Below are positions 28,778 through 57,493 of a DNA stretch of 64,000 nt, piece by piece. How positions within the stretch are numbered: the first letter of the stretch is position 1; each line of letters begins with the position of its first letter. Source of the stretch: Octopus sinensis (lineage: Eukaryota); contig NC_043013.1 of NCBI RefSeq assembly GCF_006345805.1, positions 47,554,001 through 47,618,000 on the forward strand, written 5' to 3'. The position numbers were made by a program, and so were the translations under genes. The notes under the pieces are model-generated. The model ran no database searches. It worked only from the letters and a program-made list of their open reading frames with translations, and was not told the DNA's origin.

Positions 28778-28960
28778 ATGATAGATCGTTTGCCACTACA
28801 CACATTTTTATCTCTCCTTTATTTTTCTGTGTCCCTTTCTGTAGAAGAGCGTAGACTCGAAACGTAAAACACTTTTTTCTATTCCTGAGCGTTATACTAA
28901 TACATATGTTTGTTTGGTACACCACCTGTCTTCGTCTTTTTTTTTCGTAAACTCTCCCTA
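28778..28960 (+). mobile_element. ~185-bp dispersed repeat with variant hammerhead-like motif, copy 1
   Basis: cttt CTGTAGA a gagc-gtag-actc GAAA CG TA aaac (28835-28870); homologous to 55115-55299 and 57309-57493; 3' end runs into (TATG)n. Confidence 0.85.
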
Positions 28961-29524
28961 TATGTATGTATGTATGTATGTATGTATGTATGTGTATGAA
29001 TGTATGTATGTATGTATGTATATATGTATGCATGTATGTATGTATGTATGTATGTATGTATGCATGTATGTATGTATGTATGTGTGTATGTATGTATGTA
29101 TGTATGTATGTATGTATGTGTGTATGTATGTATGTGTGTATGTATGTATGTATGTATGTATGTATGTGTATGAATGTATGTATGTATGTATGTATATATT
29201 TATGTATGTATGTATGTATGTATGTATGTATGTATGTATGTATGTATGTATGCATGTATATATTTATGTATGTATATATTTATGTATGTATGTATGTATG
29301 TATGTATGAATGTATGTATGTATGTATGTATATATTTATGTATGTATGTATGTATGTATGCATGTATGTATGTATGTATTTACGTCTGTATGTATGTATG
29401 TATGTATGTATGTATGTATGTATGTATGTATGTATGTATGTATGTATGTATGCATGTATGTATGTATGTATTTACGTCTGTATGTATGTATGTATGTATG
29501 TATGCATGTATGTATGTATGTATG
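28961..29524. repeat. (TATG)n microsatellite with internal higher-order duplications
   Basis: Directly visible; the variant block atttacgtctgtatg occurs twice. Confidence 0.97.
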
Positions 29525-29574
29525 TTGGTGTGTGAATTTGTGTTTGTGTTGGGCTTGTCCCCATCATTGCTTGA

Positions 29575-29835
29575 GGGCCCGTCGTATATATGTATATTTA
29601 TATGTGTGTGTGTCTGCGTTTGTCCCCCTAGCATTGCTTGACAACCGATGCTGGTGTGTTTATGTCCCCGTCACTTAGCAGTTCGGCAAAAGAGACCGAT
29701 ATAATAAGTACTGGGCTTACCAAAAGAATAAGTCCCGGGGGGTCGAGTTGCTCGATTAAATGCGGTGCTCCAGCATGGCCGCGGTCAAATGACTGAAACA
29801 AGTAAAAGAGTAAAAGAGTAAGAGAGTAAAAGAGT
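29575..29835 (+). mobile_element. SINE family B, 3' half
   Basis: gcccgtcg..ttgacaaccgatgctgg..aaacaagtaaaagag. Confidence 0.88.
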
Positions 29836-30399
29836 ATATATGTATATTATTACGTAAAATGTATGCAAATTCACACCGCTGGCAAAATCATTACATTTGC
29901 TGAGATTTGGGGCCATTCTCAATAAACTAACAGAGAAATGAAAAGACTTTTTTTTACTCTAGAAGGAAAGAACATTACTAATACTACGACACTAAAATGT
30001 ATGCATCAAACCCTAATTTTATGAAAAATTCGTACTTCGAGAACAACATGAGTGTTGATTAAGTGTTAAGTTATGTATTTTACCTGGTGGGCCTCAGACC
30101 AATCCTTTAACCAATGACTATTTATATACACTGGTTTAAGTGCATCGAGCAAATATAACCACAAGTAAGACAAATATTAAGAATAGAATATTTTTGGTAT
30201 GAACAACAGAATAACAACACTTATCAACGTGGATTTAGTAAAAAAAAATTCGGGTCAATATTATAAGAATGTCAATGAATACAAAAGGCACTAGAAAAAA
30301 ACTCGAAAAGATATGATTGTGACAAGCAAAATGAGGACACTAGTCCGAACATTGTTACACTCAAACACGGTTGTTGTGCATAAATATTTACAGTATATT

Positions 30400-30857
30400 G
30401 GCGCAGGAGTGGTTGTGTGGTAAGTAGCTTGCTTACAAATCACATGGTACCGGTTCAGTCCCACTGCGTGGCACCTTCGGCTAGTGTCTTCTACTATATA
30501 GCCTCGGGCCGACCAAAGCCTTGCGAGTGGATTTGGTAGACGGAAACTGAAAGAAGCCGTCGTATATATGTATGTATATATATATATATATATATATATA
30601 TATATATATATATATATATATGTATGTGTGTGTGTGTGTTTGTGTGTCTGTGTTCTTCCCCCCCAACATCGCTTGACAACCGATGCTGGTGTGTTTACGT
30701 CCCCGTAACTTAGCGGTTCGGCAAAAGAGACCCGATAGAATAAGTACTAGGCTTACAAAGAATAAGTCCTGGGGGGTCGATTTGCTCGACTAAAGGCGGT
30801 GCTCCAGCATGGCCGCAGTCAAATGACTGAAACAAGTAAAAGAGTAAAGAGAAAGAG
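30400..30857 (+). mobile_element. SINE family B, full length with 8-bp TSD
   Basis: Complete head, CORE-like block, internal (TA)(TG), tail; agtatatt at 30392-30399 and 30858-30865. Confidence 0.93.
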
Positions 30858-31292
30858 AGTATATTTACTCACGCCGTGGACTAATGCTAATATGCAAAAC
30901 AGTCTATTTCAGCTAGGTTCTAGCTTAATTATGTTTTAAATAGCGATTGCTATCGAGATTTTCATTGTTGGCGCAAGTGGGAAGTGTGGTCATTCTTCGA
31001 AGCTTCATCATTTCACCTTGAAACATATCAGAAGAATCTGAGTATTTGTAATGTGTGGTTAAGAGAAGAACATGATGCATCTATATTTCTTTACTTTCTA
31101 CCGCGTAAGCACAATAAGCTGCATATTAACTGGGTCAAATATATTTCCTATTTTTAATACGCGCTGTTTGAGCCTCAAAATCTTCCGTATGTATATACCA
31201 CAATGATGCAAGCTTGCTTAATATTCACAAACAAGTTTGTATGACTTAAAAGGTCGTATGTCTAATAATAACATTAGTTACCCTTTGACCCC

Positions 31293-31734
31293 TTTTACTT
31301 GCTTCAGTCATTTGACTGAAGGCTGGAACACCGCCTTTAGTCGAGCAAATCGACCCTAGGACTTATTCTTTGTAAGTCTAGTACTTATTCTATCGGTCTC
31401 TTTTGCCGAACCGCTAAGTTACAGGGACGTAGCACGCCAGCATCGGTTGTCAAGCGATACACAAACGCATACACACACACACACACACACACACACACAC
31501 ACCACACACACACACACATACACACACATATATATATATATATATATAATATATATATATATATATATATACGATGGGCTCCTTTCAGTTTCCGTCTACC
31601 AAATCCATTAACAAGGCTTTGGTCGGCCCGAGGCTATGGTAGAAGATGCTTGCCCAAGGTGCCACGCAGTGGGACTGAACCCAGAACCATGTGGTTGGTA
31701 AGCAAGCTACTTACCACACAGCCACTCCGACGCC
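31293..31734 (-). mobile_element. SINE family B, near full length
   Basis: Reverse complement of the family B pattern. Confidence 0.92.
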
Positions 31735-55114: not shown

Positions 55115-55299
55115 ATGATAGATCGTTAGTCACTACGCACATTTTTTTCTCTCCTTGTTTTTTTTGTGTCCCTTTCTATAGAAGAGCGTAAGCTCGAAAC
55201 GTAAAAGACTTTTTCTATTCCTGAGCGTTATACTACTAGATCTGTTTGTTTTGTACACCACCTGTCTTCGTCTTTTGTTTTTTTCGTAAACTCTCCCTA
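55115..55299 (+). mobile_element. ~185-bp hammerhead-like repeat, copy 2
   Basis: cttt CTATAGA a gagc-gtaa-gctc GAAA CG TA aaag (55172-55207); ends in (TA)n. Confidence 0.85.
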
Positions 55300-55327
55300 T
55301 ATATATATATATATATATATATATATA

Positions 55328-55733
55328 TACTATGAAAATATTAAGTGTAGACATTTGAGAGAAATATTGTACCGGTGGCCAGCATGCGTAATAAAGTCAA
55401 TAGACAACATATTTTTCGTATAAATTAGTGTACGTTTTTAAACACAAAAGAGGTGATCTTAACAGGACACCTTACATGCTGGAAAAGGCAGTTAAAGCCT
55501 AAACCACGAATGAGAATAATTACTTTTCATTCCCTTTGAAATTTCTTTTATTCCTGGTTTGGGCTTTAACTGCCTTTTCCAGCAAGTAAGGTGTCCTGTT
55601 AAGGTTACTTCTTTTGGGTATAAAAATGTATACTAATCTATATGAAATATATGCTGTTTATTGACTTTATTACGGATGCTGGACTTCGGTAGAATGTTTC
55701 TCTAAATTTTCTTCCCTTGATATTTTCATAGTA
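55328..55733. repeat. Diverged long inverted repeat, ~190-bp arms
   Basis: tactatgaaaatat (55328) and atattttcatagta (55733); inner ttaacaggacaccttac..ggaaaaggcagttaaagcc pairs with its reverse complement. Confidence 0.92.
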
Positions 55734-55798
55734 AAAGTTTAAGACCACACCAATATTATGTTGTTTCAATTGAAAATTTATGATCAACGAATTTATTA

Positions 55799-56420
55799 TT
55801 AGTATCTAGTTCCACATTCATTATTTTCAATTACAACGGCGGGACATGTAGTTTGACAAATTGGCACAAAAGTCACTTGGAATGTTCTGTCATATTTCTT
55901 CAATAAAATTATATAGTTGGGTCAAATTTGTTGGTTATTTAGGAAGAATTCTTTTTTTGTTTTTTTTTTTAGCAAGAATTCCATAAACTTTCTATCGGAT
56001 TCAAATCCGGGCTCTGCATTTTATTGCGCTGAAAAAATATTGCAAAACTTTCCTAGCCTTATGAACGGGGCAATTGTCCTGCTGGAAAATAGATCCCGGT
56101 GGCGTCTGATTTAAATATGGCCGCACATTTTCATTTACTAACTGCAGATAGATTACATTTACTAACACAATTGGACCAACACTTGATTTGCTGAACGCGA
56201 CCACACCATTACCACCACCACCCCTCATGCACACACACACACACACACCTCTCGCTTGCGCCAGTTTCTTGACACACAAAGGATGGAATTCTTCAGTTGT
56301 ACGGCATGTAACATAAGTCTTTCTGTCTGATCCATAGATGCTGAAGCGGGATTCGTCGCAAAATTAAAACAAAATTTAAGACCAAAAATCCGAGTGGACA
56401 GTGGGAAGTGTTTGCCTAAA
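55799..56420 (-). pseudogene. Decayed Tc1-like transposase
   Basis: Minus translation VGPIV..IFQQDNCPVHKARKV, QSPDLNPIESLW, QNIPSDFCANLSNYMSRRC..GTRY*. Confidence 0.9.
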
Positions 56421-57308
56421 AATGGACTCACACACACGCATGCACACACACACTATCTCTTTCTCTCTCTCTCTCTCTCGCTCTCTCTCACACAAACACA
56501 CAGTGCACATGAACAATCGCATAGTCGGTGCGAGAGACATACCTTTGAAAATGCGCTGACTGCATTTTCCTGAATTAAAACTACTATTGACTAACGTTTT
56601 TAAATAACTGGTTATTCGATCGTATTCGCTGAAATAACTATTCTGTCACAACAGTAGAGATATCCGTCTCAAGAGTGTATCTGTTATGCTGGTATCTATA
56701 AGAAATATATCAATACCACGGAAGAAAATCTGAATCGAAACCGTAAAAAAGAAGAAGAATAGTTTTGTTGTAGCTATAGTAGGAACCACAACTATAAAAT
56801 CCATTATTCTTTGGATTACAAACTCAATGATGACCTCTTTAATTGTAAATAAATTGTAAAGGAAGATCCCTCAGTTAGTTACATCAAAATACAAAGGTGT
56901 GATGATAAGACGTTTGCTTCCTAATCACATGATTCCGGGTTCAATCTCACTGCGTGGCACCTTGCACAACTGTCTTCCACTTTAGCTCTGGGCCGACCAA
57001 AGTCTTGTGAGTAGATTTGGTAGATGGAAACTGAAAGAAGCCCGTCGATTATATATTTCTATGTGTGTATGTGTGTGTGTATGTGTTTGTGACTGTTCTT
57101 GTCCTCTATAAAAACTTATTTCATTGAGATTTTTAAAGCAAATCAAATGGGTTTGTGTTTGGCCCACAAGAAAACAGAAAAACCAACTTGTTTTTCGTAA
57201 CAACTTAGCAATTTTTAAAATATTCTCTTTATTACTTTCAATTATGGTGAATTATAGTTCTCCTCCTCTCTCTCTCTTTCTCTCTCTCTCTCTTTACATA
57301 CATATGTA

Positions 57309-57493
57309 GATACATCGTTAGCCACTACACACATGTTTTTCTCTCTTTGTTTTCTGTTTCCTTTTCTGTAGAAGAGCGTAGGCTAGAAACGTAAAAGACT
57401 TTCTCCATTCCAGAGCGTTATACTAATACATCTGTTTGTTCTGTACACCACCTGTCTTCGTCTTTTGTTGTTGTTTTTTTGTAAACTCTCCCT
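57309..57493 (+). mobile_element. ~185-bp hammerhead-like repeat, copy 3
   Basis: tttt CTGTAGA a gagc-gtag-gcta GAAA CG TA aaag (57362-57397); followed directly by a SINE A. Confidence 0.85.

Follow-up and report, generated by a model that had tools for sequence, protein, structure and literature searches.

What kind of element scatters a short, hammerhead-bearing repeat through an octopus genome, and is its RNA still a working ribozyme? The question is raised by a 64,000-nt stretch of Octopus sinensis DNA (assembly GCF_006345805.1, contig NC_043013.1, positions 47,554,001 to 47,618,000, forward strand), here called the window, within which coordinates are counted. Three copies of the repeat lie in it, all on the + strand (28778-28960, 55110/55113-55299, and 57309-57493), with pairwise identities of 84.6-89.8% (E 1e-55 to 1e-67); a search within the window found no fourth. 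Each carries the motif CUUU-CUGUAGA-A-GAGC(GUAG)GCUC-GAA-ACGU-A-AAAG, a minimal type I hammerhead with a palindromic ACGU helix III. A preliminary description of this DNA had pointed to three repeats with such a hammerhead, and this is borne out, the copies being 85-90% identical with the motif in each. The uridine that it reported at the normally invariant A6 is seen in 3 of 3 copies and G5A in copy 2 only; the core reads CUGUNGA, which strict CUGANGA searches would indeed miss. The repeat is, with little room for doubt, the terminal repeat (pLTR) end of a Penelope-like element (PLE) encoding a reverse transcriptase (RT) and a GIY-YIG endonuclease (EN). As to the fold, we lean towards a U6 hammerhead whose shape selection would still maintain, acting as a dimer ribozyme that is slow and would need the element's own protein to cut.

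The repeat as the end of a Penelope-like element

A DNA search with the repeat gave 1,876 candidates, of which 40 were scored and 30 fetched. These 30 copies share a fixed 3' end and differ in their 5' ends. In one of them (L023/L031), the sequence upstream of the repeat is first rich in pyrimidines and then enters a GIY-YIG frame, and a second, inverted copy is present. When the 87-amino-acid endonuclease piece of that frame was used as the query (6,545 candidates, 150 scored), 30 loci were fetched, counting the query itself; 28 of them have the repeat downstream and in the same orientation, 7 with the window's A7 subfamily. Of 20 regions with long frames, 18 show this arrangement too, two of these regions overlapping loci already counted among the 30. 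Four elements (L062, L063, L075, and L182) have the full order pLTR, open reading frame (ORF), pLTR over ~4.3-4.5 kb, with repeats 96-99% identical. Their ORF matches Pfam RVT_1 above the cut-off and GIY-YIG below it (E 0.006); the 87-amino-acid piece alone matched 0 Pfam families. It carries a YIDD motif, a CX4CxxC linker (CSRPRCRTC in L063/L064), and a CxxC between GIY and YIG. The window's own subfamily is tied to such a frame by L035, in which an A7 pLTR, 92% identical to copy 2, is contiguous with ORF residues 438-835. The closest database homologues are RT-EN proteins, 52-57% identical and mostly unnamed. The PLE origin and high copy number proposed earlier are thus upheld, and RT-EN elements that share the repeat exist.

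A single ORF with RT followed by a C-terminal GIY-YIG domain, flanking pLTRs, and tandem, inverted, and 5'-truncated copies are the marks of EN+ PLEs. As read from the sequence, the architecture is of the Neptune/Nematis type, and Neptune-type by the linker motif, which Nematis also has. The Neptune/Nematis elements of Craig et al. 2021 (PMC8557442) share with those described here the domain order, the pLTRs, a CX2-5CxxC linker, a CxxC inside GIY-YIG, tandem and inverted insertions, and (TA)n targets; the difference lies in the hammerhead core, which is non-canonical here. Recognisable 3' ends enter TA-like repeats in 65 of 67 cases. In the sequence archive, the stretch occurs in 20 rows from 7 studies under 5 organism codes, contigs in every case, and no RNA record was listed. 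For a 5'-proximal intron, no GT..AG joint was listed in contigs (4 aligned), in which ends, strand, and splicing are not resolvable.

A uridine at position 6 throughout the family

Exact counts in one 26-nt context were made over the whole 2.72-Gb genome. They gave 13,499 cores with U6, 143 with A6, and 341 with C or G at this position, and reversed control patterns gave 0 matches; the motif thus stands far above chance. With 13,499 of 13,983 exact-context cores, and U6 in every sampled subfamily, the suspected family-wide, high-copy fixation is confirmed. The A6 copies scatter over all subfamilies in a flank-only tree, as post-insertion mutations would; an A6 subfamily within the GUAG-loop family was rejected on the same scatter. 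G7 is somewhat over-represented among them (27 of the first 100, against 11 and 14 of the first 100; hand counts). Cores with G5A number 245 genome-wide and are spread over all N7 classes, by which a dead G5A subfamily was likewise rejected. G17 occurs in 93 cores only, and U6 with a 3-nt loop in 75 only, mostly loop deletions of the U6 family.

At the family level, the features of a minimal PLE hammerhead are all present: helix I, helix II with G10.1-C11.1, an extra base after A9, and the palindromic ACGU helix III, which the preliminary description had seen in three copies and which is found family-wide. Pairing holds in 96% of cells, and is broken in window copies 1 and 3. From the canonical core CUGANGA...GAAA...UH the lineage departs at position 6, the remaining letters agreeing. 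Rfam matched no hammerhead in the whole window at the gathering score, and in the copy 1 region at E<=10 it returned no hammerhead either, only microsatellite-driven microRNA and small nucleolar RNA noise. This silence favours reading the motif two letters downstream (U3-N4-G5-A6-A7-G8-A9), which would do away with the A6U variant, or taking it for a chance look-alike, and GAAGA does fit G5-A6-N7-G8-A9 in the shifted position. The shift, however, breaks helix II (C-U mismatch, 2-nt loop) and leaves U4 free, and PLE hammerheads have been described as having the extra A behind A9. Above all, the GAGC/GCUC stem recurs in a sister family, there with a loop of 3 nt and beside a canonical CUGANGA in the original register (4,339 matches, the 143 included). 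Since the two align with the same stem, the register is fixed; the alternative is largely refuted by this alignment, and we consider it very improbable.

Variation within the family was followed in a sample of 92 copies, none of them picked by a core pattern, of which 88 were used in 7 subfamilies, with 2 "old" and 2 unassigned copies left out. In 60 copies that were likewise found independently of any core pattern, the only polymorphic motif positions are N7 (A13/C5/G6/T35) and H17 (A29/T30/G0), besides scattered change at position 1.4 (49 G of 59 copies). N7 and H17 are the positions that hammerheads leave free. H17 alternates between A, U, and, in the sister lineage, C, and is never G in any subfamily, in keeping with the NUH cleavage rule. 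Between the majority sequences of the 7 subfamilies, none of the 34 other motif columns changes, against 38 of 147 flank columns (Fisher p=2.5e-4), and C3-G8, A9, G12, A13, A14, and A15.1-U16.1 are invariant in the U6 and sister lineages alike. The youngest subfamily is only 0.5% diverged (the window's, 3.3%), and U6 therefore did not stop amplification. A "substrate-only" motif cut in trans by the A6 sister was also considered, and is not favoured, the enzyme half being as conserved as the substrate half.

Following the sister ORF led to full-length sister copies with frames of 1,008 amino acids in L172 and L173. L172, L173, and L174-L191 (G000 C1:74948674-74956673, C19:26801479-26809478, and others) are full-length pLTR-ORF-pLTR elements of ~6.1-6.5 kb with a long CA-rich 3' untranslated region. 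The core in their pLTRs reads CCGACGA, a U4C change that is often accompanied by C17. Such cores have ~7,461 exact matches genome-wide (the first 100 all with C at position 4) and outnumber the canonical A6 relatives in the sister lineage. The U6 and C4 RTs are ~75% identical and group together with 100/99 support against 20 selected, unnamed outgroup homologues; in this unrooted comparison, the ancestral state is taken to be A6 because hammerheads in general have it. Helix I pair 2.4-1.4 is C-G in the U6 lineage and G-C in the sister lineage.

Some side observations concern the two lineages together. In L172 (reverse strand, ~1116 and ~1389) and L127, the TA tail of a U6 pLTR is followed at once by an element of the C4 lineage lying within it. 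Two unlike hammerheads that share the ACGU palindrome thus come to lie 273 nt from each other, and might conceivably form heterodimers. The motif CCTGAGCG lies 15-30 nt 3' of the hammerhead (window 28885-28892 and 55220-55227; L132-L161; L172) and is conserved in both lineages despite diverged flanks. At tandem junctions, the first letters of the element body are complementary to this motif, GCGCTCA in U7 and a GCGCGC-like stretch in C4, and long-range pairing between the two is possible. L099 (reverse strand, ~2880), L188 (~396-440), and L234 contain minimal hammerheads of further, unrelated families, in which helix II is longer and the core is canonical or nearly so; these probably belong to other PLE families.

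Copying, cutting, and the alternatives

The window's repeats are short copies, and the preliminary description had taken them for a discrete ~185-bp unit. This much is real in the window's subfamily: of 34 A7 copies sampled by position (2 duplicates removed; positions relative to CCATG), 32 end inside a ~190-bp unit, against 16 of 30 in the U7 subfamilies (15 of 30 at a -8 cut). The A7 5' limit is sharp, as 17 of the 19 copies reaching +8 stop between +8 and -8 (expected 15%, P 2e-12), and lies ~65-70 nt upstream of C3; window copies 1, 2, and 3 end at +2, -3, and +4. U7 copies are bimodal, their truncation rate falling 12-fold beyond -8 (p 4e-5). TA microhomology may add to the A7 pile-up. 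By eye, short copies of the sister lineage seem to have a fixed 5' start too; sister 5'-end figures were left unused, the pairwise mapping having run into TA repeats. The limit is likely the transcript start. In Penelope, the start site and promoter lie in the pLTR (PMC2377424), and the anole Poseidon element PAc starts reverse transcription internally, near the 5' part of the RNA (PMC11167929).

The same description went further and saw in the unit a non-autonomous, PLE-derived or retrozyme-like mini-element; as a separate retrozyme, it would be copied in trans by the PLE enzyme from its own short or circular RNA. The A7 excess of short copies and the sharp limit speak for it, as does one head-to-tail trimer, L237 (G000 C3:33014164-33017384), whose ~200-nt units of mixed subfamilies are joined pLTR-end to 5' limit without TA; a template-switch product and retrozyme precursor is a possible explanation of it. 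A preprint derives retrozymes from pLTRs (10.64898/2026.07.22.740005), and non-LTR retrozymes (PMC7229834; bioRxiv 10.64898/2026.07.22.740005) resemble the unit in being ~190 nt long, type I, and pLTR-related. Unlike them, the units here are not arrayed in tandem and, by the one copy folded, apparently not highly self-paired; they are contiguous with an RT-EN ORF, and their hammerhead is minimal, not canonical. The search for tandem copies found only 43 head-to-tail pairs with a spacing of 180-210 nt, whereas single cores number ~13,500; of 6 examined, 3 were nested insertions of different subfamilies, 2 local duplications, and 1 the TA-free trimer. The fold of one near-typical copy was no better than shuffles (z=+1.22). 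Short and ORF-linked copies, L035 included, have the same sequence, that of the 3' pLTR of RT-EN elements, and the apparent fixed start in the sister lineage makes the limit look like a by-product of PLE copying. The retrozyme reading thus fails the array test and is improbable, although short copies might still be re-mobilised.

Under the reading that we prefer, the RNA would begin in the upstream pLTR, at the 5' limit, and the RT-EN protein would nick (TA)n and start reverse transcription just past a pLTR end. Copying to the 5' end of the RNA would give ~190-bp solo copies as in the window, the unit being the cDNA from the reverse-transcription start point to that end, while copying from the downstream pLTR would give longer, ORF-bearing, 5'-truncated copies. 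Two hammerheads, from the two pLTRs of one transcript or from two RNAs, would pair via ACGU and cut after H17. Because U6 is predicted to weaken the uridine turn and to permit an off-state in which U4-G5-U6 pairs with A15.1-C15.2-G16.2, cutting would be slow unless assisted by protein. In local folding, helix II formed reliably in intact copies, and the off-state, which depends on U6, was predicted in A7, C7, and U7 copies; in a longer folding context, helix I and II probabilities fell for most copies. Unconstrained dimer folding of 8 copies, including two canonical A6 controls, gave a hammerhead dimer in none and is uninformative. Published cases give such a slow enzyme some precedent. The natural A6C variant of phage Bcep176 and the U4C viroid variant keep low activity (PMC3088659, PMC7151607), and the PAc hammerhead cuts only with its protein (PMC11167929). 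In metazoans, the activity of minimal PLE hammerheads is weak, also when they are tested as dimers (PMC4209133). PAc (Frangieh et al. 2024, PMC11167929) further resembles the present element in its AT-rich targets, its hammerhead in the pLTR, and an internal start of reverse transcription that would yield short pLTR copies. It differs in that its reading frame opens within the hammerhead, the ATG of the present element lying ~750 nt downstream, and in that its activity is a measured one, that of the hammerhead here a prediction.

Several points weigh against a selected, protein-dependent ribozyme. All single mutants of the CUGA turn were low in activity in a full mutational scan (PMC9901934), and A6C costs a very large rate factor in Mg2+ (PMC7151607). 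PAc hammerhead mutants were without effect on insertion in vitro and no RNA reads ended at the PAc cut site (PMC11167929), so cleavage may be dispensable. Within the family, loop II (GUAG) varies no more than the core does, a constancy that catalysis alone would not call for. Of the helix covariation that was to be checked, one change in helix I was found, a single and weak event, and helix II showed no compensatory change. No fetched U6 copy has an unbroken frame from the ATG (longest frames 949, 843, and 835 amino acids), and the U7 subfamilies lack a pile-up at the 5' limit (3/18). The subfamily test drew its groups from the flank tree and 32 of its 92 copies from BLAST with copy 2, and its flank columns include T-rich tracts that align poorly.

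The scan, the PAc mutants, and the invariant loop also favour a pLTR of the same PLE origin whose hammerhead no longer cuts and serves as a fold bound by RT-EN, or as part of an internal promoter a short way downstream of the start site; the A6U of this lineage and the U4C of its sister would then be tolerated losses of catalysis. Different letters of the uridine turn were lost in the two lineages, Naiad PLEs thrive without canonical hammerheads (PMC8557442), and the Penelope promoter is located in the pLTR (PMC2377424). A merely structural role sits less well with a motif free only at N7 and H17, with H17 obeying the NUH rule, with core letters invariant in both lineages, and with the 245 scattered G5A copies, of which no subfamily was ever amplified. 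We regard loss of cutting as possible, and hold it tentatively.

Window copies, known hammerheads, and meaning

The copies and their surroundings in the window are as follows.

28778..28960, + strand: copy 1, short pLTR-end copy from the U6 PLE (subfamily A7/A17); L035, in which the pLTR is linked to an ORF, matches it with 90% identity in that pLTR
28835..28870, + strand: copy 1 minimal hammerhead (C3 28839, U6 28842, predicted cut after A17 28866)
28961..29525, no strand: (TATG)n run, TA-rich target at the 3' end of copy 1
55040..55109, no strand: (TA)n/(ATAC)n run, 5' side of copy 2
55110..55299, + strand: copy 2, short pLTR-end copy, 92% identical to the L035 pLTR over 196 nt
55172..55207, + strand: copy 2 minimal hammerhead (C3 55176, G5>A 55178, U6 55179, predicted cut after 55203)
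55298..55329, no strand: (TA)n at the 3' end of copy 2
57309..57493, + strand: copy 3, short pLTR-end copy
57362..57397, + strand: copy 3 minimal hammerhead (C3 57366, U6 57369, predicted cut after 57393)
57494..57720, + strand: unrelated high-copy tRNA-like short interspersed element (SINE) between copy 3 and (TA)n
57721-57773: (TA)n beyond the SINE, 3' of copy 3

No window copy has a clean family core, a damaging change being private to each, and all three are likely neutral, dead relics. In copy 1, G11.4>A (28855) breaks a helix II pair and G1.4>C (28870) the fourth helix I pair; in copy 3, C11.1>A (57385) breaks G10.1-C11.1. The 4-bp helix II described for all three is clean and intact in copy 2 only. 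The 5' end of copy 2 coincides with the family 5' limit, and its G5>A, judged by the scatter of G5A cores over all N7 classes, is a change acquired after insertion. The claim that the copies always adjoin (TA)n or (TATG)n holds for copies 1 and 2 and fails for copy 3, which the SINE adjoins directly. The SINE label rests on box-like motifs judged by eye; ARAGORN found no tRNA in 57494-57720. The reverse complement of this repeat forms the 184-bp unit of tandem arrays at 16660-17247 and 49116-49966 (3.2 and 4.6 copies, 94% and 99% matches).

The minimal type I PLE hammerheads of Cervera & De la Pena 2014 (PMC4209133) are in many respects like these. They lie in the pLTR, sense to the ORF, with a short helix I, an extra nucleotide between A9 and G10.1, a G10.1-C11.1 pair, and a palindromic 15.2-16.2, and occur mostly as solo copies from truncated PLEs. 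Unlike them, the motif here has U6 lineage-wide, a helix II of 4 bp, and very low core variability between subfamilies; a core change named there is U3-A8. The natural A6C (phage Bcep176) and U4C (viroid) variants (PMC3088659, PMC7151607) resemble it in a single CUGA-turn change with low activity expected. Those variants are rare, isolated, and have a full helix III, whereas here A6U and U4C are fixed in multi-thousand-copy, dimer-dependent retroelement lineages. PLEs have been annotated in an octopus genome, with no mention of ribozymes in the accessible portion of the paper (PMC13282606). PLE hammerheads and occasional core variants are thus already known, while the lineage-wide A6U, as it appears from sequence comparison, is without a prior record that we found: no natural A6U lineage turned up in the searchable literature, whose scope leaves outside Lunse, Weinberg & Breaker 2017 and the supplements of PMC4209133, either of which could hold one.

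The role of PLE hammerheads is unsettled, and this genome contains a natural series of cores set in scaffolds that hardly differ: canonical A6 in older sister subfamilies, U4C in full-length sister elements, and A6U in copies as young as 0.5% diverged. Assayed with and without their own RT-EN proteins, the series would test both the role of cleavage in PLE transposition and the rescue of a damaged core by protein. In this genome alone, surveys built on CUGANGA overlook at least ~21,000 hammerhead-like motifs of PLEs. Should the motif simply be dead, the result would be modest and still useful, a case of a ribozyme fold that came to serve in binding or in a promoter. More speculatively, and rather doubtfully, two sister PLE lineages may have independently detuned the uridine turn, by A6U and by U4C, with all other catalytic letters and the exclusion of G at the cleavage site retained, since a slow, protein-gated ribozyme suits the element; RT-EN would then switch on a nearly dead RNA enzyme, and U6 would act as a latch hiding the ACGU dimer site. 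If this protein-gated detuning were true, detuned cores would outnumber canonical ones by ~5:1 in these two lineages, invisible to standard ribozyme searches.

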